A DNA stretch of 52,648 nucleotides from Candidatus Gottesmanbacteria bacterium. Its GTDB lineage: Bacteria; Patescibacteriota; Microgenomatia; UBA10105; UBA927. The stretch spans positions 1 through 52,648 of the forward strand of contig JACPFZ010000026.1 of assembly GCA_016182725.1 (NCBI GenBank), in the 5' to 3' direction. Made by a program: the position numbers and the translations under genes. The notes under the pieces are model-generated. The model was not told the DNA's origin. It did not search any database and worked only from the letters and a program-made list of their open reading frames with translations. This document shows, in pieces, positions 12,416 to 52,364 of this stretch (the stretch's first letter is position 1; every line of letters begins with the position of its first letter).

Positions 12416-12633
12416 ATGAGAAAGCGCAAGAGATTGCGACGCAGTGGGTCAATATGTAGTTTATCCCACTCTTTTTTTACCTGGGAAAGAGAGATTTTCC
12501 TCCTTCCAGGACCGTAGTTGATCATGTTTTCCAGAATATACCGCCGGCCCCAGGTAGTTTTTTTGAGATCTTTTTCGCGGTAATCCCAGATATGCATAGA
12601 ATGTATTATAGCTGGTGTGGACAAAGAAGGCAA
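12400..12633 (-). CDS. Small protein upstream of and overlapping the AbiEii-like gene (possible cognate partner)
   Basis: 77-aa ORF overlapping the AbiEii-like start by 16 nt. It is far shorter than canonical AbiEi antitoxins. Confidence 0.4.
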   Translation of the reverse strand: MPSLSTPAIIHSMHIWDYREKDLKKTTWGRRYILENMINYGPGRRKISLSQVKKEWDKLHIDPLRRNLLRFLIWGKK

Positions 12634-12715: not shown

Positions 12716-14384
12716 GTGGTGTATGATAAGAAAAGTATGGTTGTTCCAGATGCACAGCTTGCCTCTCTGGTTATTCAGGCGGGGTTTACCAATCAAGCCG
12801 GGATTGATACGGTTTCTCAATATGCGGCAGGTGCTCATGTGTCTCTTGCCTCTGCTATACTCGAGAAAGGTGTCGCGACAGATGAGCAGTTGGGGTCACT
12901 CATTGCAACTTTTCTCAAACTGCCATTTGTGCAGCTTTCAAAGATTTCTATCCCCCCAGACGTTTTTCATATCATTCCAGAAAAAGTTGCCAGGATCCAT
13001 CACGCGGTGGCCTTTGCGCGCGATACGGATGGCGTAAAGGTAGCGTCATCCAACCCTCAAGATCAGGCACTGTTTGCCATGGTGGAGAAAAAGACTAGCC
13101 GTCGGGTCATTATCTACTATGCGACCCAGCGCGATATAGAGAGTACACTGCAGGTATACAAAACACTTCTTCAGAATACGATTGATGAACTCCTGAAAGA
13201 AGATGTCAGCAAAGCGGCAACGACGGTCGTTTTAGAGGACCCGCCGGTTGCTAAAATTGTGGACGTCCTCATTGATAACGCGTACCAGGATAAGGCATCG
13301 GATATTCATATTGAGCCGGAGGAGAGCCAGTCGCTCATTCGTTTTCGCATTGACGGGGTGCTCCGAGACGTGTCACGGGTTCCCAAGTCTCTGCACGACC
13401 GGATTGTTACGCGCATTAAAGTGCTCTCGAGCCTGCGTACCGATGAACATTTGAGCGCCCAGGATGGCAAGATGCGTATGGCATTAACGGAGGAAAATCT
13501 CGATATTCGCGTCTCCATTATTCCGGTTTCTGATGGGGAAAAAGTGGTTCTGCGGCTTCTGTCTTCCCGATCGCGGCAGTTTACGTTGACTGATCTGGGG
13601 ATGAACGAACGGGATCTCCAAAAAGTGACCAATGCATTTAACAAATCCTACGGCATGATGTTGTCTACCGGTCCCACTGGCTGCGGGAAAACGACCACCA
13701 TCTATGCCATTTTGAAAATTCTCAATACCCGCGAGAAAAATATCACCACGATCGAAGAACCGGTGGAGTACCGGATAGCCGGTGCCAATCAAGTGCAGGT
13801 GAACCCCAAAACCAACCTCACATTTGCAAGCGGATTACGCAGCATTCTTCGACAGGATCCCAACATCATTTTTGTCGGTGAAATCCGTGACAACGATAGT
13901 GCTTTCCACGCTTCACACCAATGATGCGGCAACGGCGATTCCGAGACTCACGGATATGAAAGTCGAACCATTCTTAGTAGCTTCCACGGTAAATATCATC
14001 GTTGCCCAGCGGTTAGTACGGAAAATCTGTGATTCCTGTAAGGGAGCGATGAGTATAACCATTGATGAGCTGAAAAAACATTTGCCTCCAGAGGTGATCC
14101 AAAAGCATTTCGGAGGAGGACAAGAGATAACCATATACAGAGGAAAGGGCTGCAACATTTGCCATACCACTGGGTATTCCGGCAGGGTGGGTATTTTTGA
14201 AGTCCTTGAAGTGACCAAGGGAATCAGAAAACTCATTACGGAAAAAAGCGATTCCGATGTTATTGCGAAAGCTGCCGTTGCCGAAGGCATGAATACCATG
14301 CTGGATGATGGGTTGGAAAAAGTCATAAAAGGGTTCACGACCATTGAAGAAGTCATCAGGGCCACGAAAGTGGAATTTCTATGA
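12716..14384 (+). pseudogene. pilB: Type IV pilus / T2SS assembly ATPase PilB (GspE family), split by an internal deletion plus frameshift
   Basis: ORF 12716-13924 carries the T2SSE_N domain, Walker A GPTGCGKTTT, EEPVEY and Walker [13 protein letters not shown] 13824-14384, in a different frame, carries the His box [10 protein letters not shown] and the CxxC..CxxC zinc site. About 13 residues normally found between GEIRD and STLHTN are missing. Confidence 0.8.
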
Positions 14385-14522
14385 CCAGGTAGTAGAATTT
14401 CGACACGCTTAGCGTTGTCCGATTCACGCCATAAATCTGGTGTATAGAAAAATTATTTTTTAAAGAAAGGACAGTGAGGTTTCGCCGGCGTTCTAGACAA
14501 CGGTCGAAATTTCACTACCTGG
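14385..14522. repeat. Long-hairpin intergenic element, copy 1 (138 bp, MITE/REPIN-like)
   Basis: Ends are CCAGGTAGTAGAATTTCGAC and GTCGAAATTTCACTACCTGG, which pair over 20 bp with 1 mismatch. The copy is flanked by TATGA on both sides and lies between the pilB TGA and the pilC ATG. Confidence 0.85.
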
Positions 14523-14523
14523 T

Positions 14524-15564
14524 ATGATAACCTTGAAGGGCAGTGAAAAAATCGGACTCATCAGCAACCTTGCGACCATGCTTTCTGCAGGCATTCCCAT
14601 TTTGGAAGTCGTTAATTCGCTTCTGGAAGATGCGAAAGGTAGTCCGAAAATAATCCTCGAAGCGCTCAAGGAAGATTTAACGAGCGGAAAACGAATCTCT
14701 GTGTCATTTGCCCGATTCCCCAGGGTATTTGATCCGGTGACCATCAACGTCATTACAGCAGCAGAAACATCGGGGACATTGGACATCACGCTCAAAGATT
14801 TGAAAGAGGGCATCAGGAAGGAAATGGAGTTTTCGGATAAGGTGAAATCATCGCTTCTCTATCCTATTTTCATCATGATTATATTTGCCGCAGTTCTTCT
14901 TTTGGTTCTTGTCGTCGTCATTCCCAAGATTGCAATGGTTTTTGAGAAATTACGTGTTTCTCTTCCGTTGCCGACCAGAATCCTCATCTTTTTTTCAACG
15001 GTACTTCTCCATTACACCGTGTTTGTTATTGCCGGAGTTACCCTGCTCGTTATTGGGATTATTATTCTCTTCCGAATCAAGAGAAACGTTGTTTTCGACC
15101 TTCTTTTTTCTTTCCCTCTCATAAGTACTCTCATAAAGGAAATAGATCTCACCCGATTTTCCCGCAATCTTTCCCTCCTTCTTTCCTCGGGTCTGCCTAT
15201 TGCAGTGGCCCTTGAGCTTATTGCTCATGTGGTCATCAGGCGGCAAACCGCGCGCATTCTTCTGACCTCGCGTGATATGGTGATGGCGGGCAAAACTCTT
15301 TCGGAAGGATTCCGAGTATCCAAAGGATATTTCCCGGCGATTATGGTGAAACTGGTGGAAGCAGGGGAAAAAACCGGCACCCTGGATAAATCCATGCAGG
15401 AAATATCCGAATACTTTGATTATCAAGTGACCAATCGGTTAAAACTCCTCACGAGTCTACTCGAGCCTATCATGCTGGTGGTCGTGGGGATTGTGGTTGG
15501 TGGCATGATGCTTGCGATTGTTGGTCCTATCTACGGTCTGGTCAGCCAGGTCGGCGCACGGTGA
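14524..15564 (+). CDS. pilC: Type IV pilus platform protein PilC (T2SSF family)
   Basis: 346-aa ORF with two T2SSF repeats (NLATMLSAGIPILEVVNSL and NLSLLLSSGLPIAVALELI) and TM helices. It is shorter at the N-terminus than typical ~400-aa PilC proteins. Confidence 0.8.
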   Translation: MITLKGSEKIGLISNLATMLSAGIPILEVVNSLLEDAKGSPKIILEALKEDLTSGKRISVSFARFPRVFDPVTINVITAAETSGTLDITLKDLKEGIRKEMEFSDKVKSSLLYPIFIMIIFAAVLLLVLVVVIPKIAMVFEKLRVSLPLPTRILIFFSTVLLHYTVFVIAGVTLLVIGIIILFRIKRNVVFDLLFSFPLISTLIKEIDLTRFSRNLSLLLSSGLPIAVALELIAHVVIRRQTARILLTSRDMVMAGKTLSEGFRVSKGYFPAIMVKLVEAGEKTGTLDKSMQEISEYFDYQVTNRLKLLTSLLEPIMLVVVGIVVGGMMLAIVGPIYGLVSQVGAR

Positions 15565-27827: not shown

Positions 27828-28436
27828 ATGTTTACCTTGCCGGAGTTGCCTTATGCGTACAACGCACTCGAGCCATATATTGATGAGGCTACGATGCGGA
27901 TTCATCATGATAAGCACCATGGTGCTTATGTGAAAAATCTCAACGATGCGTTTATGGGGCAGGATGATCTGTTGGCAATGTCTGTTGAAGATTTGGTAAA
28001 GAAGCTTTCTCAAGTCCCGGAAGCAGTCCGGATAAAAGTACGAAACAACGGAGGAGGACACGCCAATCATAGTTTGTTTTGGCAGGTGATGAGTCCTAAT
28101 CCCGCGGGGGCCCTTCGGCAAGCTCAGGGCGATTTAGATGCTGCTATTAAAAAATCGTTTGGGAGTTTTGACAAGTTTCAAGAATTATTTAGCGCTGCTG
28201 CCCTAAATCGATTTGGTTCAGGGTGGGCGTGGTTGGTTAAAGATAACGGAAAGCTTGTAGTTATGGACACGCCCAATCAGGATTCGCCGCTTATGGAAGG
28301 AAAGACGCCGATTTTGGGTCTTGATGTCTGGGAACACGCGTATTATCTCAAGTATCAAAATTTGAGGGCTGACTACATAAAAGCATGGTGGAGTGTGGTG
28401 AATTGGGCGGAAGTCGAAAAACGGTATGCCAGGTAG
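27828..28436 (+). CDS. sodA: Fe/Mn superoxide dismutase
   Basis: An AGGAGG Shine-Dalgarno sequence precedes ATG 27828. Signatures are [22 protein letters not shown] and DVWEHAYYL. The TAG stop at 28434-28436 lies inside repeat copy 2. Confidence 0.9.
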
Positions 28437-28568
28437 TAGAATTTCGACACGCTTTTCATGTTGTCCGGTTCGCAACGCTACCTTGGCCATACAAAGGTAT
28501 TTTTTAAAGAAAAGGGGGCCTGAAATTTTGACAGCGTAAAAGACAACAGTCGAAATTTCACTACCTGG
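28429..28568. repeat. Long-hairpin intergenic element, copy 2 (140 bp)
   Basis: It has the same 26-nt left end and the same ~20-nt right end as copy 1. It also shares the inner stem GTTGTC/GACAAC and the central TATTTTTTAAAGAAA block. It is flanked by TATG on both sides. Confidence 0.85.
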
Positions 28569-28569
28569 T

Positions 28570-29307
28570 ATGCGGGGAGTGCGTGATCCGAGGCTCCGGG
28601 TATTCAAGCTTCCTAAAGAAGCGATTATTTTCGCCTTTGCCCAGTGGCAGGGAAGTCGTAGCCGGCAGGAAGATTTCGTCGGAAATTTTAAGGACGAGTG
28701 CTTTGTTGTCTGTGATGGCGTCAGCGGACTGCCACATGGGGACGTAGCTGCCAATCTTGCCGGAGAAACCGCTCTGTGGGCGTACAAACAGGTGCGTCTG
28801 CGCAAAGGCTATTGGGCAGATAAGCGCCTCCTTATCCGGAGGATTTTTCGATCAACGAACCTTACCATCTGGCAGAAAAAAAGAGAACCAGGATTTGAAG
28901 ATGGGCTGGCAACCACGCTCCTTGTCGCTATTGTCGGACCCATGACCATCTGGGTGGGGAGCGTGGGGGATAGCAGTGCATGGGTTTATAACGGAAACCT
29001 CCTGAGGTTGACGCGTGAAGACCGCGATAGGAGCGGGAATCTCACGCGAGCCTTGGGGTATCAGCGCCTGGGGCTTTGGCCAAACGCCAGCCAGCAGCGA
29101 TTTTTATCAGGCGACCTTCTTATCCTTGCTACGGACGGCATTACATCCGTCCTTTCTCCGAAAGAGGTGTCAGCATTGGTGAAAAACGCCGGAGATACGT
29201 CAGATGGACTTACCAACACTGCTCAAGAGATTATACGAAAAGCTCGAAACATGGGTGCCACAGACAATATGACGGTCTGTTTAGTTAAGCGCATTGCACT
29301 CCCTTGA
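28570..29307 (+). CDS. PP2C-family Ser/Thr protein phosphatase
   Basis: 245 aa with SRSRQEDF, VCDGVSG, LILATDGI and ATDNMTV (PPM metal-binding motifs). Confidence 0.8.
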   Translation: MRGVRDPRLRVFKLPKEAIIFAFAQWQGSRSRQEDFVGNFKDECFVVCDGVSGLPHGDVAANLAGETALWAYKQVRLRKGYWADKRLLIRRIFRSTNLTIWQKKREPGFEDGLATTLLVAIVGPMTIWVGSVGDSSAWVYNGNLLRLTREDRDRSGNLTRALGYQRLGLWPNASQQRFLSGDLLILATDGITSVLSPKEVSALVKNAGDTSDGLTNTAQEIIRKARNMGATDNMTVCLVKRIALP

Positions 29308-29332
29308 TAAGTTACTGATATACTAGTACCAT

Positions 29333-29536
29333 CCAGGTAGTGAAACTTCAGAAACGTATGTTCTTTTCAGAGACTATACGATACATGAGGAGGTTCCACT
29401 GGAAAAGAACATACGTTTGAAATATGAAGCAAAACGCAGAAGTGACTATTCAACAAATAAAGAGAGGAGACTTTTCAAGCGCAGAATAAAAGATTGTTTC
29501 TATTCTCTGCGTTTTGCCTGAAGTTCTACTACCTGG
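29333..29536. repeat. Long-hairpin intergenic element, copy 3 (204 bp, variant interior, opposite arm polarity)
   Basis: Ends are CCAGGTAGTGAAACTTCAG and CTGAAGTTCTACTACCTGG. The interior holds two further perfect stems: 29352-29368/29402-29418 and 29429-29440/29506-29517. Confidence 0.8.
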
Positions 29537-29537
29537 T

Positions 29538-31022
29538 ATGCCCGATGATTTTTTTGCCGATATTTCTGATGGCAAAACCCCGCCGACGTACCGATTTTTC
29601 AATGGCAAAGAATGGGTGGTATCTACAAGTGGGAAAATAACAGCGGTGCATTCTCCGATTGATGCGTCTATTGTTGGTCATCTTCAGGTGGTCACTACTG
29701 CGGAAATTGATGCGGTGATGGAAACTGCTAAGGCGGCCCAGCCAGCGTGGGAGGCAATACCCCTGAATCAGCGCGTCAAAATCATGCATTTGGCCGCAGA
29801 CTGGACTGCCCATTTTGCTGATTACCTTATTGCGCTTTTGATGCGGGAGATTGGAAAAACGACCGATGAAGCCAAGGGAGAAATTATGCGCACCGTAGAC
29901 CTTACGGATTACTTTGCCGATGAAGCCCAGTCACTGCGCGGAGAAACACTGGACAGTGATAATTTTCCCGGGTTTGAAAAAGGACGTATTGCGCTCGTTG
30001 AGCGCGTCGCCTATGGCGTGGTGGTCGCCATTAGCCCGTTTAACTATCCGGTCAATCTCTCTGCAAGTAAAATTGTCCCGGCCCTCCTTATGGGTAATAG
30101 CGTGGTCTTTAAGCCGCCGACCCAGGGAGCAATCAGTGGACTGCATTTGACGAAAATTTTCCAAAAAGCTGGTGTGCCTGCTGGCGTTTTGAGTTGTGTC
30201 ACTGGGGGAGGAGGAGAGATTGGTGATTATTTGGTGAGCCATCCAAAAGCAGACCTTATTACCTTTACGGGAAGTAGCGATACAGGAAGGGCGATTGCTG
30301 TAGCAGGCGGCATGAAGCCTTTGGTATTTGAATGCGGCGGCAACAATCCGGCCGTTGTTTTTCCTGATGCGGATATGAGTTTGACTGTTCGGGAAATTAT
30401 TAAAGGCGGCTTTTCCTATGCCGGTCAGCGCTGTACGGCCATTAAATACGTGCTCGGAACATCGGGAGTGTTAGAAAGCCTTTTGCAAGAGGTCCTCTTG
30501 CAAATGAAGACACTTGTTCACATGGGTGACCCGCGAAGTCCCGAGACCAAACTCGTCGGGCCGGTGATATCAGAACAAGCCGCCCTTCATATTGAAGAAG
30601 TTATTCAAGAGGCGGTGGGTGACGGGGCAACCATCGCAACTGGTGGCAAACGCACTGCCAGCTACATCGAACCGACGATTTTGACCAATGTCAAGCCAAC
30701 GATGAAGATTGTAGGAACGGAGGTTTTTGGACCGGTAATTTCTTTTATGAGCGTCAACAGTATGGATGAGGCGGCTACCATCATCAATGGGTCACATTTT
30801 GGACTCCAGGCATCGGTATTTACGAAAGACGAGGGGACAGGGATTGTGTTTGCTCGGCAGCTTAATGTCGGTACAGTTCAGATTAACGGTTCGCCCCAGC
30901 GCGGCCCGGATCATTTTCCATTTTTAGGCGTCAAGCGCTCCGGCTTGGGCGTCCAGGGCGTGCGGTATTCTTTGGAAGCTATGAGTAGACTCAAACCCAT
31001 CGTCCTCAATAAACCCGCTTGA
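29538..31022 (+). CDS. Aldehyde dehydrogenase family protein (non-phosphorylating GAPDH GapN-like)
   Basis: VFECGGNNP, the catalytic-Cys region YAGQRCTA and EVFGPV are present. The start is placed at ATG 29538 (MPDDFF), directly after the repeat. The ORF-track start at 29514 lies inside the repeat arm. Confidence 0.75.
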   Translation: MPDDFFADISDGKTPPTYRFFNGKEWVVSTSGKITAVHSPIDASIVGHLQVVTTAEIDAVMETAKAAQPAWEAIPLNQRVKIMHLAADWTAHFADYLIALLMREIGKTTDEAKGEIMRTVDLTDYFADEAQSLRGETLDSDNFPGFEKGRIALVERVAYGVVVAISPFNYPVNLSASKIVPALLMGNSVVFKPPTQGAISGLHLTKIFQKAGVPAGVLSCVTGGGGEIGDYLVSHPKADLITFTGSSDTGRAIAVAGGMKPLVFECGGNNPAVVFPDADMSLTVREIIKGGFSYAGQRCTAIKYVLGTSGVLESLLQEVLLQMKTLVHMGDPRSPETKLVGPVISEQAALHIEEVIQEAVGDGATIATGGKRTASYIEPTILTNVKPTMKIVGTEVFGPVISFMSVNSMDEAATIINGSHFGLQASVFTKDEGTGIVFARQLNVGTVQINGSPQRGPDHFPFLGVKRSGLGVQGVRYSLEAMSRLKPIVLNKPA

Positions 31023-36514: not shown

Positions 36515-36548
36515 AAATGTTATCATGTTCTAGAACATGATAACATTT
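36515..36548. repeat. 34-bp perfect palindrome (copy A)
   Basis: AAATGTTATCATGTTCT|AGAACATGATAACATTT. Its 28-bp core TGTTATCATGTTCTAGAACATGATAACA recurs at 49104-49131. Confidence 0.9.
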
Positions 36549-45000: not shown

Positions 45001-46702
45001 GATCGGTTTTTTACAGGAAGAAAAACAAGAGAAGCTTCGATCGCTTTTGGCAACGTATGTTCGTGGACCGTATAAGAAGTCCTTCATAGCGACATTTGAT
45101 GGTTTAGAAGAAGAAGGGATGGAAGATGTCTTTGATATTACCGTTGCCGGTATTCATCGGTTTGCTGCAAACGGCATGATAGTTTCCAATTGCGGTGAGG
45201 AAGCTCTTCCAGATTGGGGCGTTTGCAATTTGTGTTCCATCAATCTTGCGGCACTCGTGACCGATGCGGGAGAGATGGATTACAAGCGCCTGGCAGACAT
45301 TGCCAAAATTGGCGTGCGATTTCAGGATGACATTGTGGATGCGGATTTCTACGTGTTTGATGAAATTTCTAAGGTCCAGAAGGGAGGCGAGCGGCGGATA
45401 GGGCTAGGGACCATGGGGTTGGGCGATGCGCTTATTAAAATGAAACTGCGCTATGGCTCAGCTGAATCGTTGCCGGTTATTGATAAAATCTATCGCACCA
45501 TTCGCGACGCCGCGTATGAAGCATCCGTGGACATTGCGAAAGAAAAAGGAGCATTTCCAAAGATAGATATTGAAAAGCATCTTGATGCGTACTTTATCAA
45601 ACAACTTCCCGAAGATACGAGAAAGAAAATGAAAAAGCATGGGGTGCGAAATAGCGTGGTGCTCCAACAGGCGCCCACAGGGTCAACCTCGCTCCTTTCC
45701 GGAGTTTCCAGTGGCATTGAGCCGGTGTATGAATTTGAATTTATTCGGCGTGACCGGCTCGGAGAACATACGCTGCGCCATCCGCTCTATGATGCATGGT
45801 TTGATGCGTTTAAAAAAACGAATGGGCGGGAACCCACCAAAGAAGAACGTCCCGGTTGGTTTGTGTCGGCAAATGATCTGACGCCGGAAGACCACGTGCA
45901 CGTGCAGGCAACGATTCAAAAGTATGTAGATGCCAGCATTAGTAAAACCGTCAACGCGCCCAAAACGCACACAGTGGAAGATGTCAAGCGACTCTACACG
46001 TTGGCGTATGAACTAGGATGTAAAGGCATCGCGTATATGCGCGAAGGGAGCAGGCAAGGAGTGCTGTCTCGCCCTGACTCCGCCAAGGCTTCGTCGGGCA
46101 AGCAGGAAGAAAAACGAGCAGAGCAGTCGCGACCCGAAGTAAAGCCTCGGCCAATGATTGCCCACGGATCAACCTATCAGATAGAAACGCCGGTGGGACA
46201 GGCATTTATCACTATCAATACCAATGGTGGCATGCAGCCGTTGGAGATATTTATTAATGTTGGGAAAGCAGGAAGCGACGTAACGGCTATGGCAGAGGCA
46301 ATGGGTCGGTTGATATCATTAACATTGCGCATGGCCTCTCCTATTCCCGCCTTGGACCGTGCCCACAAAATAGCAGCGGAGCTTATCGGCATTGGCGGCG
46401 CCCGTAGTTTAGGTTTTGGAGAAAATAGAGTGCGCAGTTTGCCTGATGCTATTGCCAAAGTGATTGACCGGCACTTTGGTTTTTTCACGAAACACCGTTT
46501 AAGTGATTCTGCGCCCGATGCAGTGAATGGTCATACCTCGGAAGACCTCGGTACAAGTACGCCAGCGCAACAATTACCGTTACCGCAAACGCAATCCCAG
46601 CGCATGGTGACCGTTGACTTATGTCCCCAATGTGGCGAAGGAAGCCTGGTGTTTGAAGAATCCTGCAAGAAATGTTATAGCTGCGGCTATTCGGAATGTT
46701 AA
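42026..46702 (+). CDS. nrdJ: Class II (adenosylcobalamin-dependent) ribonucleotide reductase carrying two inteins
   Basis: The extein sequence reads MDLTGIRQTVFLDRYALKD.., QQGG|SRRGALM, NP|CGEEALP..CNLCSINL, ends in a CPQC..CKKCYSCG zinc ribbon, and totals about 795 aa. The start is taken at ATG 42026. Confidence 0.85.
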   Translation: MDLTGIRQTVFLDRYALKDETGKPVEKTPEEMWRRVAHAIAQVEPKAKREHWEEQFYDAMQNFILVPGGRILSGAGTGYKVTFYNCFVVPSPADSRGGILKTLGQMVEIMSRGGGVGINLSSLRPRGSRVKKVNGFSSGPCNWAELFSVATKDIIQQGGCFAPGTRIMTHRGLVPVEEIVMGKARSFAATHQGYKEVTARFHNGRKEVYEVTTAAGFRVTATGEHKFVTFNERGEFFLTPLSSLREGDHTVMLLGDWRDDVPCVQLSTSLPEPSKHSWGRKDIVLPEAFTQDLAFLIGAYHADGSKISDEYSPNGKGIRIAMAHDRPEDLKTLLSAITRCFAIEPKIHHGDGAVWDVEIFSRRLNEYLTENKLMKASSVTVTVPEQVFRSPKSVVSAYIAGVFMGDGTNRGGKGGLRITTVSRRFAQELQLLLINVGIASRIAVQERKENLLAPWTEKVADHEVSVRDGAFGWPFNVVNRFAYLANFQRTMARTNPTTSQKAALFLQEHLPQVFQSDQQDVEFLASCVPDEIVSITPKGILPVYDLEVSDTHLLSGNGFYTSNSRRGALMLMLWDWHPDIEEFITVKQDLTRINGANLSVCVSDAFMEAVKNDSDWELVFPDKEDPDYDTKWDGYLSNWLALGKKVIVQKTVKARKIWDLVAEAAWKSAEPGVVFMERYNKWFNNYYWEHVNCVNPCVTGDTIVSTTNGMRTITDLYQEGKPFAVMVDGKPYLSSPVFKTGTKRVYRLKTREGYQLRLTHDHKVYTPSGKVEARQLQQGDNIVLTSGGAFGVHGTLEEGQVLGWLVGDGSMKEDVATLYFYRKEKEELAPRFAAMVSAMVDGEQIVSRSYPVGAQYIEKEDKAVVESVRLWRMAKRYGLSHENKYLVPQTICTGSEAMQRGFLQGLFSSDGHVAGTPKKGVSVRLTSVSHKLLIDVQRLLLNFGIVSKLYQNRRDAGMRRLPDGHGGYKEYTCQAYHDLVIAKSDLHLFASLIGFLQEEKQEKLRSLLATYVRGPYKKSFIATFDGLEEEGMEDVFDITVAGIHRFAANGMIVSNCGEEALPDWGVCNLCSINLAALVTDAGEMDYKRLADIAKIGVRFQDDIVDADFYVFDEISKVQKGGERRIGLGTMGLGDALIKMKLRYGSAESLPVIDKIYRTIRDAAYEASVDIAKEKGAFPKIDIEKHLDAYFIKQLPEDTRKKMKKHGVRNSVVLQQAPTGSTSLLSGVSSGIEPVYEFEFIRRDRLGEHTLRHPLYDAWFDAFKKTNGREPTKEERPGWFVSANDLTPEDHVHVQATIQKYVDASISKTVNAPKTHTVEDVKRLYTLAYELGCKGIAYMREGSRQGVLSRPDSAKASSGKQEEKRAEQSRPEVKPRPMIAHGSTYQIETPVGQAFITINTNGGMQPLEIFINVGKAGSDVTAMAEAMGRLISLTLRMASPIPALDRAHKIAAELIGIGGARSLGFGENRVRSLPDAIAKVIDRHFGFFTKHRLSDSAPDAVNGHTSEDLGTSTPAQQLPLPQTQSQRMVTVDLCPQCGEGSLVFEESCKKCYSCGYSEC
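42503..43714 (+). mobile_element. Intein 1 (404 aa) with LAGLIDADG homing-endonuclease domain
   Basis: It begins CFAPGTRIMT and has block B GEHKFVT and LAGLIDADG-like LAFLIGAYHADGS and YIAGVFMGDGT. It ends VYDLEVSDTHLLSGNGFYTSN, followed by the +1 Ser of SRRGA. Confidence 0.85.
44114..45190 (+). mobile_element. Intein 2 (359 aa) with LAGLIDADG homing-endonuclease domain
   Basis: It begins CVTGDTIVST and has block B LTHDHKVYT and LGWLVGDGSM and FLQGLFSSDGHV. It ends VFDITVAGIHRFAANGMIVSN, followed by the +1 Cys of the NPCGE active site. Confidence 0.85.
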
Positions 46703-46780
46703 TCCGATAAATCCGACAAATAAGCAAATCCGACAAATGTTTTTATTTGTAGTATTTATCGGATTTGTAGTATTTGTTTA
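46701..46780 (+). terminator. Compound hairpin / likely terminator after nrdJ
   Basis: 12-bp perfect stem AATCCGATAAAT (46701-46712) / ATTTATCGGATT (46754-46765), with an inner hairpin ACAAAT..ATTTGT. A T-rich tract follows. Confidence 0.5.
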
Positions 46781-47636: not shown

Positions 47637-49541
47637 ATGATGGAGAAAACTATGGCAGGATGCGCGTGTGAACAAAGTAAAGGAATGTATTTATCTTCTT
47701 ATGACGATGTTGTTGAGCAACTTAAAGTATCAACTCCAACGTTGAGTGAACACGAGGTTCGTGTGCAAGCCGCTCAAACATTCCGTCCTCGATATCATCA
47801 AGATAAAATATCAGAAAAGCGCGAGGCAGCGAACTTACCAGAATACGAGATAGGCCACTTTACACTAACTGACAGTGGTGATGTTCGATATATCGAATAT
47901 GGAAAAACACTTGAGGAAATGCAACAAAGTCAAATACGTCAACGACCTGATGAATACTCACCAGAAGAACATCAAACTTCCCGGATGATCCAAGAAGCGT
48001 TCAGAAATGGGGCTACCGTGGTTTCTACGGTGTATGCCCGCAATGACGGTGAACACCGTGATATTCTTGTTATGAAATACGATCCGGTAACTCGTATTGG
48101 GACAGCATCAATTATCAATACAGCCATAGAGGGAACATATCATTCTTTTACATCGGTTCACATGCTTTCTCGTCAGCAATTTACCAGTCTAGCAGAATCA
48201 AAACCGGCAGAAAGAGTATTTATTCTTTCTGATGTGAAAGTAGAAGAACAACGGGGTAACGAGATTGTTCAAGAGGTACAGCAGATTGCTTCAGAAGTTA
48301 GTAAGACGAATCCTGTTAAAGAACGTGGTTATTGGAGGCAAGATACGTCGAGTATTCCAGAAAGAGACAGTATAGATAGGGATACATTGATGCCTCAACA
48401 TGTAGTTTTAGAAAATACTCCCCAATCCCAGAGTGTAATAATGGGATTTGTTAAAGAAGGGGAGGAAACTGGAAGGCGCGTAGTTAAAGATACTATTGCA
48501 ACGTTTTCGAAAGTGGCAGAGGTGGTGCGCGATAGTCCAATGAACGAAAACAAAAGGTCTGAAAGTCAGCCAGTTTTGGTGCAAGGTATTGAAGATTCTA
48601 AGCGGACAAAGAAAACACAGAATGATAGTAAACAGAAAAATTCCATGTTGATTATAGAGGAAACTCAAGAATCTCAAGAAGAAAAATATTTACCAAAACA
48701 ACAACACCGTAGAGTTAAAGAGTATTTACGAGTAGCAATGCAGAACAAATTGACGGAGGTTGCTCGTGTAAGAGCATCGGTAATTTTAGCAGCAAAGGTT
48801 CACTCTGTAAGTAAAACAGAAAGAAGAAGTTTCAGAGAGCTAAAGAAAAAATTACAAGAGAAAAAGGTACACTACCTGAAAGGGTTGAACCCTGTTTTGG
48901 GGCGTTACGAAAGAATAAAAAGAGAAACACGATTATTTTTACGACGTAAGGAAAAGAGACAGAAAAAGCAACAAGATCAATTGAGTAGTGTCTTGGTTTG
49001 GTTGGCCAACAAGATAGCCAAAAAAGAAAAACCCATTCAGGTTGATAAGCCAACCATACAAAAACCACAGAAAGAGATTACATCTGAAAGACGCCTTCAG
49101 ATTTGTTATCATGTTCTAGAACATGATAACAAATCTCATATGATAAGAAGGTTGAAGAAAGAGAAGGTTCTAGAGTTTTCTTTTGCTTGGATGCTTTGGA
49201 TACTTTTGCAATCACTGCGGGAGGAGAAAGTATCCTTCTTTACAACCATTTTTCAACAGCACTTCGATGTATCGATACATCGAAGTGAGCTGACAGGTGA
49301 GGAAAAGGCAAAGACAACTTCATTAGTAGAGATAAATAATTTGAGATCAATGGATAGGTTAGTTGAAAACGAACCGACCCACTGGGTGCTGTTGGCGATT
49401 ATTTGGTATTTGGCGATGATTCGGGAAGGAGGAATGAGTAATTATCCAATAAAAAGGCAGGGACAAAAAAGATTGGTACACACGGGAGTAATATTTGCCT
49501 ATCAGCCGCCAGTTCGTGCTATGATGGAGATATATGGATGA
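47637..49541 (+). CDS. Large hypothetical protein, Lys/Glu-rich with C-terminal hydrophobic helices
   Basis: 634-aa ORF preceded by GGAGG. No motif recognised. It contains a 38-bp perfect palindrome at 49099-49136. Confidence 0.5.
   Translation: MMEKTMAGCACEQSKGMYLSSYDDVVEQLKVSTPTLSEHEVRVQAAQTFRPRYHQDKISEKREAANLPEYEIGHFTLTDSGDVRYIEYGKTLEEMQQSQIRQRPDEYSPEEHQTSRMIQEAFRNGATVVSTVYARNDGEHRDILVMKYDPVTRIGTASIINTAIEGTYHSFTSVHMLSRQQFTSLAESKPAERVFILSDVKVEEQRGNEIVQEVQQIASEVSKTNPVKERGYWRQDTSSIPERDSIDRDTLMPQHVVLENTPQSQSVIMGFVKEGEETGRRVVKDTIATFSKVAEVVRDSPMNENKRSESQPVLVQGIEDSKRTKKTQNDSKQKNSMLIIEETQESQEEKYLPKQQHRRVKEYLRVAMQNKLTEVARVRASVILAAKVHSVSKTERRSFRELKKKLQEKKVHYLKGLNPVLGRYERIKRETRLFLRRKEKRQKKQQDQLSSVLVWLANKIAKKEKPIQVDKPTIQKPQKEITSERRLQICYHVLEHDNKSHMIRRLKKEKVLEFSFAWMLWILLQSLREEKVSFFTTIFQQHFDVSIHRSELTGEEKAKTTSLVEINNLRSMDRLVENEPTHWVLLAIIWYLAMIREGGMSNYPIKRQGQKRLVHTGVIFAYQPPVRAMMEIYG
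49099..49136. repeat. 38-bp perfect palindrome (copy B) inside a CDS
   Basis: AGATTTGTTATCATGTTCT|AGAACATGATAACAAATCT. It has the same 28-bp core as 36518-36545. Confidence 0.9.
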
Positions 49542-50015: not shown

Positions 50016-52364
50016 ATGCCCGATATTTTTCTTGATCTTGTCTACCGATTAGAAGTACTCACGATAAGCCTCATTATTACGGCCATTCTTTTTGGTGGAA
50101 TTGCTGGTCTTGCCTACATTGTTTTTCTTCTTTGGAAGTATCGCGATCGGGAACAGCGTTCTCTGGATTATATTTTGTTGCAGGTAGCCGTGCCCCGCGA
50201 CAACGAAATTAAAATTGATGCGGCGGAACAGTTGTTTGCCAGTCTTCACGCGATTTTTAAAGGCGGTTTCTGGTCCTTTCTTACGCCGCAGCCGCACATT
50301 TCCTTTGAAATTGTTGCGAAAGCGGAAGATATTCGTTTTTATGTGTCTGTACCAAGGAAGCTTACCGATCTTGTCGAAAAGCAGATTCATGGTGCGTATC
50401 CGGGAGCGGACATTAAAGAAGTTGAGGAATACAACATTTTTTCCAAAGAGGGAAAAGTAGCATTTGCGGCGCTGCGACTAAAAAATACAGATTATCTCCC
50501 TATCCGTATTTACCGTGATTTGCCCACGGATCCGTTATCTTCTGTTACGTCGGTTCTGGCCAAGATGCAGGGGAGTGAAGGAGCTGCCATACAAATTCTC
50601 ATCCAACCCACGAGTGGCACGTGGCGATCGTTCGGTCGTTCCTATATTTCTAAAGTGAAAAAAAACGAAGCAAATCCGGAAAAGGCAAGCTTCAAAGTGG
50701 ACCAAAAGTCTCTGGAAGCAATCGAGCAAAAAACCAGTAAACCCGGATTTAAGGCGGTCGTTCGACTCGTTGTATCTTCTGATAGTGGGGAGTCGGCAAA
50801 GCTTCACCTGCAAAATCTGCTTTCGGCCTTTGAGCAGTTTTCGTCAGACTCCAACAACTTCAAGAAAGTGCGCTTGCCTCTTGCAAAATTATTCATGGTT
50901 GATTTTATTTATCGTTATTTTCCGATGTTTAGCATTCCATTTTTTCAGCAGTACAGCGTTCTTAACAGCGATGAACTTGCGACCATCTACCACTTTCCCA
51001 ATAAATCCGTTGAGACACCGCATATCTTTTGGCTCAATGCCAAAAGGGCCCCTGCTCCGGCGCAGATCCCCACCAGCGGTATGTTTTTAGGGAAATCCCG
51101 CTACCGGGGGATCGAGCGGCCGATTTACATCGATAACGACGATCGCAGGCGCCACGTCTACATCATCGGGAAAACCGGTACCGGAAAGAGCCAGCTTCTG
51201 GAAGAAATGATCATGCAGGATATTGAAGCGGGTCGGGGAGCGGCAGTTATTGATCCGCACGGAGATCTGATTGACGGCGTCCTCTCACGGATCCCGCCGT
51301 CGCGGGCGGAAGACGTCATTTATTTTGACCCTTCAGACATCGAACGGCCGATGGGCCTCAATATGCTCGAAGCTAAAACCGAGGAGCAGAAGCATTTTGT
51401 CGTCACCTCCATCGTCGGCCTCATGTACAAGCTCTACGACCCTATGAAAACCGGTATCATCGGCCCCAGGTTTGAACATGCCATCAGAAATGCGATGCTC
51501 ACGGTCATGAGCGAGCCAGGGAATACCTTTGTTGAGGTGGTTCGGGTACTTACGGATAGTTCTTTCGTGCAGGAACTTCTGCCGAAAGTGACTGATCCGA
51601 TTATCCGCCGGTACTGGACCGATCAGATAGCGCAAACCGCTGATTTTCATAAATCTGAAGTGCTGGATTACATTGTATCCAAATTTGGCCGGTTCGTCAC
51701 CAATAAACTCATGCGTAACATCATCGGCCAGTCGGACTCAAGTTTTGACTTTCGTAGCGTGATGGATGAAGGGAAGATTCTTCTCGTTAACCTTGCGAAG
51801 GGAAAGATCGGGGAGGAAAACAGTAACTTTCTGGGCCTTATTTTGGTCCCGCGCATCCTGATCTCTGCCATGAGCAGGCAAGAGCTTCCGGAGGAGCAAA
51901 GGCGGGATTTTTACCTCTATGTGGATGAGTTTCAAAATTTCGCCACACCCGATTTTGCCCAAATTCTCTCTGAAGCGCGTAAGTACAGACTCAACTTAAC
52001 GGTTGCGAATCAATTTATCGGCCAAATGGAAGAAGAGGTAAAAAACGCGGTATTTGGCAATGTGGGAACTTTGATTACCTTCCGCGTGGGCGTGACGGAT
52101 GCCAATTACTTGCAGCATGAGTTCCAGCCCACATTTAACGAACCCGATCTTATCAACATTGACCGATTTAATGCGTATGTCAAAACGATCGTCCGCAATG
52201 AACCGGTGAAGCCTTTTAGTATGGATTTGACCAAAGATATGGCAAAAGTGAATGCAATGCGCAGTCCCGCAGTTGCCCGTGCCATCATCCAGCTTTCGCG
52301 CCTCAAATACGGCCGCTCCAAAGAGCTGGTCGAAGCGGAAATTGCCCAACGCGCGAGGCTTTAG
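50016..52364 (+). CDS. Type IV secretion coupling protein (VirD4/TraD/TraG)-like membrane ATPase
   Basis: N-terminal TM helix, Walker A IIGKTGTGKSQLL, Walker B FYLYVDEFQNFAT and RKYRLNLTVANQFIGQ. The start is taken at ATG 50016; the ORF track uses GTG 50004. Confidence 0.65.
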   Translation: MPDIFLDLVYRLEVLTISLIITAILFGGIAGLAYIVFLLWKYRDREQRSLDYILLQVAVPRDNEIKIDAAEQLFASLHAIFKGGFWSFLTPQPHISFEIVAKAEDIRFYVSVPRKLTDLVEKQIHGAYPGADIKEVEEYNIFSKEGKVAFAALRLKNTDYLPIRIYRDLPTDPLSSVTSVLAKMQGSEGAAIQILIQPTSGTWRSFGRSYISKVKKNEANPEKASFKVDQKSLEAIEQKTSKPGFKAVVRLVVSSDSGESAKLHLQNLLSAFEQFSSDSNNFKKVRLPLAKLFMVDFIYRYFPMFSIPFFQQYSVLNSDELATIYHFPNKSVETPHIFWLNAKRAPAPAQIPTSGMFLGKSRYRGIERPIYIDNDDRRRHVYIIGKTGTGKSQLLEEMIMQDIEAGRGAAVIDPHGDLIDGVLSRIPPSRAEDVIYFDPSDIERPMGLNMLEAKTEEQKHFVVTSIVGLMYKLYDPMKTGIIGPRFEHAIRNAMLTVMSEPGNTFVEVVRVLTDSSFVQELLPKVTDPIIRRYWTDQIAQTADFHKSEVLDYIVSKFGRFVTNKLMRNIIGQSDSSFDFRSVMDEGKILLVNLAKGKIGEENSNFLGLILVPRILISAMSRQELPEEQRRDFYLYVDEFQNFATPDFAQILSEARKYRLNLTVANQFIGQMEEEVKNAVFGNVGTLITFRVGVTDANYLQHEFQPTFNEPDLINIDRFNAYVKTIVRNEPVKPFSMDLTKDMAKVNAMRSPAVARAIIQLSRLKYGRSKELVEAEIAQRARL

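Follow-up and report, generated by a model that had tools for sequence, protein, structure and literature searches.

Background

The closest described counterparts of the DNA element analysed here are the Ssn proteins, single-domain GIY-YIG enzymes of 94 amino acids that bind NTS/SRM hairpin repeats and cut only single-stranded DNA (ssDNA), on one strand (Chenal et al., Nat Commun 2025; PMC11893778). The ssn genes are flanked on both sides by NTS/SRM repeats, of which hundreds of copies exist, and the NTS-ssnA-NTS layout has been likened to an insertion sequence; mobility is hypothesised only, and no target duplications, empty sites or start-codon placement are reported (PMC11893778). In this article, we focus on a 204-nt hairpin-rich repeat located in front of an aldehyde dehydrogenase (ALDH) gene in a 52,648-nt contig of a Candidatus Gottesmanbacteria bacterium (JACPFZ010000026.1, assembly GCA_016182725.1; the whole contig is referred to as the window). 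It is the third of three related repeats in the window and is called copy 3. We conclude that copy 3 is probably a non-autonomous, dead copy of a very small kind of mobile element that occurs mainly in Patescibacteria and is moved by a GIY-YIG nuclease.

This family resembles the Ssn system in that a single-domain GIY-YIG protein of ~90–94 amino acids is encoded by a gene flanked on both sides by hairpin-capable repeats, the same repeats recur at many dispersed sites that mostly lie outside genes, the repeats and the protein apparently co-evolve, and the hairpin is directionally asymmetric. It differs in two respects: 1) the flanks are the arms of one long-range stem, that is, true terminal inverted repeats (TIRs), whereas those of Ssn are two self-contained hairpins, and 2) its members show target duplications, have empty counterparts in relatives, are placed at start codons in the orientation of the host gene, and contain conserved intragenic stems, none of which is described for Ssn. 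The published SRM consensus HGTCWY..RNCYNB occurs neither in the window (0.32 occurrences expected) nor in 67 family members that carry an open reading frame (ORF), searched with 150 nt on each side. The Ssn paper (PMC11893778) was the only closely relevant one found in the literature on GIY-YIG proteins in connection with TIRs, MITEs (miniature inverted-repeat transposable elements), the candidate phyla radiation (CPR) or start codons.

Several other systems share some of the properties of the family. The IS200/IS605 elements, their PATE derivatives and the REP/RAYT systems are likewise very small and have short hairpin-containing non-autonomous derivatives. In IS200/IS605 and REP/RAYT a small nuclease reads imperfect ssDNA hairpins, with mismatches in the stem setting the strand and the orientation, and by analogy we predict a counterpart of this recognition here; in contrast, IS200/IS605 elements rely on the HUH Y1 fold, have subterminal hairpins and lack both TIRs and target-site duplications (TSDs), whereas the present family has a GIY-YIG protein, TIRs and 3–5-bp duplications. 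The Correia-type MITEs of Neisseria are similar in size (~100–150 bp), TIRs, short target duplications and many copies near gene starts; they fold into long hairpins in transcripts and can influence the expression of neighbouring genes. Correia-type elements are attributed to DDE transposases or have no known partner, whereas longer partners with the same ends as our short elements exist and encode a GIY-YIG nuclease alone, whose mobilising role we infer. Placement exactly on start codons, with the ATG included in the duplication, is also unusual compared to Correia-type MITEs. Among related proteins, Slx1 cleaves branched and hairpin DNA as a structure-specific nuclease, needs Slx4 and has a RING domain, and the UPF0213 proteins (YhbQ/BH0048-type) differ in being encoded by single-copy housekeeping-like genes with no known flanking repeats. 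Finally, the free-standing GIY-YIG homing genes (T4 seg, I-TevI) are also selfish genes located between host genes, co-oriented with them and reliant on host expression signals, but their products have DNA-binding domains and they move between alleles by recombination, without TIRs, TSDs or MITE-like derivatives.

Results and discussion

The element family and the identity of copy 3

Copy 3 has terminal inverted repeats, is small and without an intact ORF, and belongs to a family with multiple copies at unrelated loci, which are among the features by which a MITE is recognised. Its arms (CCAGGTAGTGAAACTTCAG / CTGAAGTTCTACTACCTGG) are 19 nt long each and 89% complementary. They enclose a 17-bp and a 12-bp perfect stem (stems A and B), and all three structures were found where an earlier description made by a model from the DNA letters (the sequence-only reading) had placed them (Table 1).

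A search for the arm pattern in one genome per species yielded many matches in metagenome-assembled genomes (MAGs) of Patescibacteria, including Gottesmanbacteria, Saccharibacteria-labelled genomes and others. Among them, the intact elements L006, L106 and L111 are 313–318 nt long and have the same arms, and their whole interior consists of one ORF of 85–91 amino acids. In general, an intact element measures 305–350 bp and comprises two inverted arms of 19–25 nt and one ORF for a single-domain GIY-YIG nuclease of ~90 amino acids that extends across the interior. The recovered set contains 67 ORF-bearing insertions and 53–56 short derivatives, mostly from Patescibacteria MAGs; the short derivatives are 58–170 nt long, with hairpins down to 31 nt. 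More than 1000 homologues of the nuclease were found, about 88–100 amino acids long, and those with a name are annotated as "GIY-YIG nuclease family protein" of Gottesmanbacteria or Patescibacteria. In a metagenome scan with the protein alignment, 514 of 600 candidates encoded a relative, and in nearly all of the 80 metagenome loci fetched the ORF was bracketed by inverted arms of 19–25 nt. Viral contigs scanned with the nuclease contained no relatives.

The ORF-bearing elements reveal the origin of copy 3. In blastn comparisons with L130, L127, L126, L006 and L132, positions 94–204 of copy 3 align at 80–84% identity (E from 2e-24 to 2e-17) and positions 1–35 are ~90% identical to ORF-bearing elements. 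The coding leftovers consist of M-F-F codons, starting with a relic nuclease ATG inside stem A (29358–29360), and, in another frame, the C-terminal 32 codons (..AKRR...RRLFKRRIKDCFYSLRFA, then stop), without an intact domain; the stop of the ancestral ORF, TGA at 29519–29521, lies in the right arm. Stems A and B occupy the same positions as the conserved inner stems of intact elements, and only loop and linker sequences have been deleted in alignment to these relatives. Judging from these alignments, copy 3 is a descendant of an intact element via two internal deletions that destroyed the gene and kept the arms and both inner stems. The interior of copy 3 had been described as unrelated to that of copies 1 and 2. 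It is unrelated because it is a decayed gene, not arbitrary sequence: blastn finds only the 20-nt arms in common between copies 1 and 2 on the one hand and copy 3 or the ORF-bearing elements on the other. The grouping of copy 3 with copies 1 and 2 in one family, made in the sequence-only reading, is supported. The 9-mer CCAGGTAGT occurs 7 times in the window compared to 0.16 expected, a number that no shuffled sequence reached, 6 of the 7 occurrences are the arm tips of copies 1, 2 and 3, and the same arms recur throughout the family. The seventh occurrence is a solo 9-mer at 12550–12558 with no partner arm close by, which may be a relic arm or chance.

The arms follow the consensus C-C-N-G-G-TAGT-(GA|AG)-AA... 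with tips that vary by lineage while each pair matches itself (CCAGG/CCTGG, CCGGG/CCCGG, CCCCG/CGGGG, CCCAG/CTGGG, TCCCG/CGGGA). Every element has one ..GTAGT-GA-AA arm and one ..GTAGT-AG-AA arm, such that pairing of the arms always leaves one G·T and one A·C mismatch at positions 10–11. The sequence-only reading had correctly placed this GA/AG asymmetry of copy 3 on the opposite arm compared to copies 1 and 2 and had concluded that copy 3 is inverted. The latter conclusion does not hold. With the ORF pointing to the host gene, 43 elements are of the GA..AG type and 22 of the AG..GA type; polarity is therefore a subfamily trait, and copy 3 has the polarity and the orientation of its own GA..AG subfamily, with its gene remnants read toward ALDH.

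The GIY-YIG protein

The ORFs of intact relatives match the Pfam GIY-YIG domain (PF01541) with E from 4e-16 to 7.5e-18, and the nuclease residues Y4, Y6, Y17, R27, H31 and E63 are invariant in protein alignments. The proteins of 85–103 amino acids contain this one Pfam domain and no DNA-binding domain; NCBIfam gave only sub-threshold matches. An AlphaFold2 model (mean per-residue confidence, pLDDT, 87.6) consists of a plain GIY-YIG domain with a long, basic helix at its C-terminal end. The folds closest to this model are UPF0213 BH0048 and Slx1 (TM-score ~0.6, root-mean-square deviation 2.1 Å), and the same two groups provide the nearest PDB sequences by profile (UPF0213 1zg2, E 1e-7; Slx1, E 1e-5). 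Some deposited models of the nuclease (P0087, P0021, P0101) bear N- or C-terminal extensions (..QVVKLQ.., ..ARNSTTRYV) that are translated arm sequence; the elements apparently mislead gene callers.

Evidence for insertion

The elements are flanked by direct repeats of 3–5 bp, of which 4-bp repeats (45 of 65) and 3-bp repeats (10 of 65) are the most common. The predominant repeat is TATG (27 cases), followed by TGGA (8), ATG (6) and ATGA (4); elements not located at start codons have other A/T-rich repeats, for example TTTG, TAAG, TCAA, TATAA and CAAAG.

Two related genomes, L207 and L208, preserve the gene order PBP/SOD/PP2C/ALDH of the window (their PP2C proteins are 65% and 61% identical to that of the window), and both lack copies 2 and 3 at the syntenic loci. 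The empty site of copy 2 in L208 is an overlap of the SOD and PP2C genes, ..aaacgcTATGccgaacgtgcttga. Because the window without copy 2 and one TATG reads ..aaacggTATGcggggagtgcgtga, which is the same arrangement, copy 2 is on this comparison an insertion that struck the start codon of PP2C and duplicated TATG perfectly. The empty sites of copy 3 read TATACT-N6-ATGCC (..tatacttacatcATGcccgat in L207 and ..tatactactggtATGccggaa in L208), while the window has ..tatactagtaccat followed by copy 3 and tATGcccgat, that is, TATACTagtaccat, 204 nt and tATGCC. The ALDH orthologues of L207 and L208 begin at the same ATGCC. The statement that no target duplication is visible at copy 3 holds on inspection, but relative to the empty sites the window has a net gain of 204 + 3 nt, consistent with an imperfect duplication of 3 bp (CAT/TAT). 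These comparisons show that copy 3, which the syntenic relatives lack, was inserted exactly at the aldehyde dehydrogenase start codon. An ORF-bearing element provides a third case: L116 reads ..GATACACTAGAAATATG, the 313-nt element and TATGGCC, whereas L210–L212 are without the element, read GATACTAGAAGTATGGCA or GATACTAACTATATGGCA at this site, and encode a downstream GalT-like host protein that is 83–86% identical.

Additional signs of mobility come from the distribution of the copies. One MAG contains seven copies at different loci with mutual identity of 71–90%. In L145, L147, L162, L168, L182 and L200 elements stand in tandem with a shared TATG or TGGA spacer. Mini hairpins of ~31 nt, in which a 3-nt loop joins arm tips that have the GA/AG mismatch, are nested in larger elements (L136 1474–1823 and L165 1290–1320), where they have their own 5-bp duplications (TCAAA, CAAAG), and ~14 nt per arm may be enough for mobilisation. 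Hairpins of this size were also seen in the interiors of L087 and L093. The depth of the arm word is 8–10 times that of the flanks in four groundwater sequencing runs, with many alternative interiors between the same arms. The interiors fall into discrete subfamilies, a point that the sequence-only reading had proposed to check.

In the closest relative, L206 (PP2C 80% identical), a different inverted-repeat insertion (..cttcgactcg...cgagtcgaag..) is found at 1770–1900 in the 3' end of the SOD gene, together with a duplicated SOD C-terminus; an unrelated element has thus struck the same gene junction.

Placement at start codons

In 47 of the 67 ORF-bearing insertions, a host ORF of 60 codons or more that is read in the same direction begins within a few bases of the right arm, compared to a divergent ORF adjoining the left arm in 1 of 67. 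The short elements behave similarly, 42 of 53 adjoining a co-directional host ORF of this minimum length. The stop codon of the nuclease is usually 14–22 nt ahead of the host ATG. Where genes overlap, the TATGA and ATGA duplications retain the stop of the upstream gene as well as the start of the downstream one; at copy 1, the TATGA repeat preserves the stop (TGA) of T2SSE and the start (ATG) of T2SSF. All three copies in the window finish with ...CCTGG-T-ATG, as the sequence-only reading had noted, and this ATG opens a long ORF, namely T2SSF for copy 1, the PP2C phosphatase for copy 2 and ALDH for copy 3.

On the other side of the elements, TAnnnT boxes peak at a 6-nt spacer from the ATG of the left junction, a spacing seen in 11 of the 49 ORF-bearing elements and in 6 of the 32 short ones. 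Such a box precedes the ALDH and GalT-like starts by 6 nt in both occupied and empty sites (window 29319–29324; L207 3262–3267; L208 3254–3259; L210–L212 upstream of 1501). From their sequences, many target genes in the lineage look leaderless, and the arrangement at copy 3 suggests that ALDH was formerly leaderless and that its transcript would now start with copy 3.

Two candidate rules were tried and rejected. A Shine-Dalgarno sequence bridged by the hairpin is present in L075 and L083, with AAGGAG directly to the left, but it is not general, given the Shine-Dalgarno-like motifs in only 6 of 51 left flanks. A guide role of stem A, with CATAA pairing with the TATG target as in IS608, was rejected on the grounds that stem A is invariant across subfamilies with differing duplications.

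In 8 of the 45 right flanks of ORF-bearing elements (L126–L205) the host ATG is followed by CC (Met-Pro), which we judged, without a control, to be above expectation. The resulting TATGCC imitates the element's own left junction TATG|CC, and it may reflect a target preference.

Structure and covariation

Covariation was evaluated in 64 ORF-bearing elements against 500 shuffles. In the arms, 98.9% of the cells are paired and 192 are changed on both sides, compared to a shuffled mean of 54; in inner stem A, 95.1% are paired and 70 are doubly changed, compared to a shuffled mean of 24.8. None of the 500 shuffles was as high in either case. Changes on both sides affect 13 of the 18 arm pairs, in agreement with the earlier description of the arm differences as compensatory.

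The inner stems are of particular interest in that they involve coding sequence. In intact relatives, stem A is formed by GATTATGTTC at the nuclease start codon and GAACATAATC, the (K-)E-H-N codons. The three non-coding bases before GATTATGTTC covary with the codon after N (AAG/CTT, TTG/CAA, GCG/CGC), and in 8 sequences a synonymous change of TTC to TTT in F2 is paired with GAA to AAA (E to K). Copy 3 has stem A at element positions 20–36, as do L006, L112, L126, L130 and L132, with 4 compensated differences. Stem B in the subfamily of copy 3 pairs the (A-)K-R-R-E codons (GCAAAACGCAGA) with the C-terminal L-R-F-A codons (TCTGCGTTTTGC), and compensatory variants are found at the same position in L006 (12 bp), L126 (13), L127 and L130 (15) and L132 (11).

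The claim that the hairpin itself is maintained, rather than one-sided protein sites, can be divided accordingly. Covariation of the terminal arms does not by itself establish a hairpin, since a single protein that binds both ends would also require them to match; this part of the argument does not separate a hairpin from two matching protein sites. What does speak for single-strand folding is that inner stems A and B covary inside coding sequence and are retained in copy 3, and this part stands. Template-switch repair of a quasi-palindrome could be an alternative source of perfect stems without selection. The numbers of G·U and A·C pairs are 13 and 13 in stem A and 4 and 6 in the arms; since there is no excess of G·U, the pairing appears to be at the DNA rather than the RNA level. 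Folding as both RNA and ssDNA, which had been proposed as a check, gave -71.1 kcal/mol for the RNA of copy 3 (z = -7.3 relative to shuffles) and z = -6.7 and -7.8 for the plus and minus ssDNA strands.

Proposed mechanism

The following sequence of events would account for these observations. The GIY-YIG protein of an intact copy, acting in trans, would mobilise elements such as copy 3. By analogy with Ssn and Slx1, the nuclease may recognise folded single-stranded or cruciform DNA composed of the arm stem with its fixed mismatch and the inner stems, and it may cut at the base of the stem, the fixed mismatch telling the two strands apart. Host repair and ligation would then complete the insertion and give rise to the short duplication. 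Because the duplication contains the ATG, its left copy would leave the promoter and start signals of the host, often a leaderless +1 AUG, to the element, and the right copy would keep the host ORF whole. In a leaderless target, a 5'-terminal AUG would precede the element and a second ATG would remain on the host ORF. With the nuclease stop 14–22 nt before the host ATG and the arm hairpin closing behind, translation of the host gene may proceed by coupling or reinitiation.

In its widest form, the proposal is that the family represents a new class of autonomous prokaryotic transposons, the smallest known (~310 bp), whose sole protein, a 90-amino-acid single-domain GIY-YIG nuclease, acts on the folded ssDNA of its own element; that it inserts specifically at start codons, in many cases the +1 AUG of a leaderless gene; that the duplicated ATG hands over the promoter and initiation signal of the host; and that translational coupling spares the host gene. 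We put this forward tentatively, with confidence that stops a little short of an even chance.

A number of points weigh against movement by the GIY-YIG nuclease and the mechanism proposed. GIY-YIG enzymes are hydrolytic nucleases that are not known to carry out strand transfer, which leaves the completion of an insertion with a duplication unexplained. The support for GIY-YIG-driven mobility is comparative, and the coupling of host translation is read from the arrangement of codons. The empty sites come from fairly distant relatives (61–86% protein identity), no contig skips a whole element among the Logan contigs of the four groundwater runs, where presence and absence within populations were compared, and an identical nuclease (P0001, the ORF of L006 and L116) on 24 contigs represents a single locus in different samples. 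The window itself (52,648 nt) contains no intact nuclease gene. As to the start codons, of the 51 left flanks only 6 have a Shine-Dalgarno-like motif and only about a third have a -10 box at the spacing of a leaderless gene, and the start-codon preference could reflect selection rather than the insertion mechanism. Finally, TIRs combined with a 4-bp TSD are the classic signature of a DDE transposase, and such an enzyme encoded elsewhere in the genome may act in trans.

Alternative explanations

The alternative that survives best, which we still consider unlikely, is a domesticated system of nuclease and hairpin repeats comparable to Ssn/NTS in Neisseria, in which the dispersed hairpins are cleavage sites in incoming or replicating ssDNA that modulate natural transformation or recombination and copy 3 is one such site next to ALDH. 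The Ssn nucleases do cleave ssDNA at hairpin repeats and modulate transformation (PMC11893778), the window contains type IV pilus / type II secretion system genes, and the stems of copy 3 are retained despite the dead gene. Against this, target duplications, empty sites, and nested and tandem insertions demonstrate spread by insertion, and the start-codon placement and orientation bias are left unexplained. This alternative is compatible with movement by the GIY-YIG nuclease and does not exclude it.

We regard as quite unlikely that copy 3 is an ordinary MITE whose arms bind an unseen DDE transposase from elsewhere, the GIY-YIG ORF being a passenger or an invading homing-endonuclease gene. TIRs of ~20 bp and TSDs of 3–5 bp are typical of DDE elements, GIY-YIG nucleases as a superfamily are not known for transposition chemistry, and copies 1 and 2 match the ORF-bearing elements in the arms only. 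However, the ORF occupies the entire interior in 67 insertions from diverse lineages, among which the arm tips vary. No transposase was found between arm pairs located 0.9–2.9 kb apart (L021, L042 and L093 enclose host genes only; ~200 loci were fetched), and no transposase family was found among the neighbouring genes inspected. DDE ends are not characterised by conserved inner stems or by a fixed G·T/A·C mismatch.

It is highly improbable that the family is a free-standing homing-endonuclease gene with incidental arms, spreading only to allelic sites through the repair of double-strand breaks: GIY-YIG is the classic homing-endonuclease fold (I-TevI) and co-oriented insertion between genes resembles the seg genes of phage T4, but the insertions are at many non-homologous loci with short duplications, non-coding derivatives retain only the arms, and the protein lacks a DNA-binding domain. 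Equally improbable, and already largely refuted, is the reading of copy 3 as a structured leader of the ALDH mRNA that is kept for gene control in cis, in the manner of a riboswitch or attenuator: copy 3 does lie between a promoter-like site and the ALDH ATG and folds very stably, but it is homologous to a protein-coding element, its family precedes unrelated genes, orthologous ALDH genes lack it, G·U pairs are not in excess of A·C pairs, and Rfam gave no match at the gathering score across the window and none even at E <= 1 in 28380–29600. A promoter and terminator scan indicated that the only promoter-like site adjoining copy 3 is that of the host and detected no terminator-like site in copy 2 or copy 3.

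Implications

If movement by the GIY-YIG nuclease is true, GIY-YIG would be a sixth class of transposition enzymes beside DDE, HUH, serine, tyrosine and Cas1, and autonomous mobile elements would be known at a smaller size than before. The question left open in the Ssn paper, whether such units are or once were mobile, becomes directly testable with a family that supplies target duplications and empty sites, and the present data appear to be the first comparative evidence found that units of a single-domain GIY-YIG protein and hairpin repeats insert as transposons, and do so at start codons. Insertion at a start codon with the ATG in the duplication would be an unusual, low-cost way for a parasite to borrow host expression signals, and it bears on how repeats are tolerated in the tiny, gene-dense genomes of Patescibacteria. 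There are also consequences for annotation, including mis-called gene starts, altered gene ends (SOD) and arm sequence translated as spurious extensions (P0087, P0101). Matched pairs of nucleases and hairpins could widen the set of site-specific ssDNA tools proposed for Ssn.

Copies 1 and 2 and other features of the window

The features of the three copies are listed in Table 1.

Table 1. Coordinates of the three elements in the window and of associated features
Feature	Position	Strand	Description
Copy 1	14385..14522	+	138-nt short element; 5-bp direct repeat TATGA at 14380-14384 and 14523-14527
Copy 2	28429..28568	+	140-nt short element, AG..GA, AATTTCGAC subfamily; perfect 4-bp TSD TATG at 28425-28428 and 28569-28572
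TATACT, -10-like box	29319..29324	+	6 nt upstream of the ancestral ALDH ATG; kept in empty sites
Left copy of imperfect 3-bp target duplication	29330..29332	+	CAT; partner TAT at 29537-29539
Copy 3	29333..29536	+	204-nt non-autonomous GIY-YIG/TIR element with internal deletions; sense of gene remnant +
Copy 3 left arm	29333..29351	+	GA type, CCAGGTAGT-GA-AACTTCAG
Copy 3 inner stem A	29352..29418	+	17 bp perfect, 29352-29368 with 29402-29418; loop 33 nt
C-terminal GIY-YIG ORF remnant in copy 3	29427..29521	+	Frame 0 translation ..EAKRRSDYSTNKERRLFKRRIKDCFYSLRFA, then stop; L006 counterpart ..DAKRREKYLKTSQGGRLLKRRLKEYFFQHLRFA, then stop
Copy 3 inner stem B	29429..29517	+	12 bp perfect, 29429-29440 with 29506-29517
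Copy 3 right arm	29518..29536	+	Reverse complement is AG type, CCAGGTAGT-AG-AACTTCAG
Host gene aldehyde dehydrogenase (ALDH)	29538..31022	+	Pfam Aldedh, E 9e-139; ATG 1 nt past copy 3 right arm

At copy 2, the SOD gene now terminates at a TAG within the left arm (28434–28436), which changes the C-terminus of the protein to ..KRYAR in place of ..KRYAGSA. The PP2C ATG next to copy 2 (28570) is the true start, because homologues of 245–250 amino acids span 100% of the query; an exact-protein look-up of the PP2C of the window returned no record.

Copies 1 and 2 belong to the AG..GA subfamily of short elements, the members of which are nearly all placed as AG..GA|TATG-gene. This near-uniform placement suggests an orientation-dependent role of their interior. 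In one alignment with 19 relatives, the interior is conserved and contains the covarying pair CTTTGCC/GGCAAAG (GTTGTCC/GACAAC in the window), which is crossed by an ACGCT/AGCGT pair, as well as an internal copy of the arm tip, ACTACCTG, and, ~50 nt ahead of the ATG of the host, a GAAAGGAG motif.

The T2SSE (PilB/GspE-like) ATPase gene before copy 1 (12716–14384) consists of two overlapping ORFs, 12716–13924 and 13824–14384, which match positions 4–226 and 238–370 of the Pfam profile and point to a frameshift, a pseudogene or an assembly error.

Further inverted repeats of the window, unrelated in sequence to the GIY-YIG/TIR family, are located at 46701–46765 (23-nt arms, 19 nt apart) and 51903–52049 (16-nt arms, separated by 115 nt). 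At 36515–36548 and 49099–49136 there are two perfect palindromes, 34 and 38 bp long, with none expected by chance; they have the common core TGTTATCATGTTCT|AGAACATGATAACA. The ATGTTCT/AGAACAT of this core is similar to stem A of the nuclease elements, which may be a coincidence, and the palindromes look like an operator or another small palindromic element.

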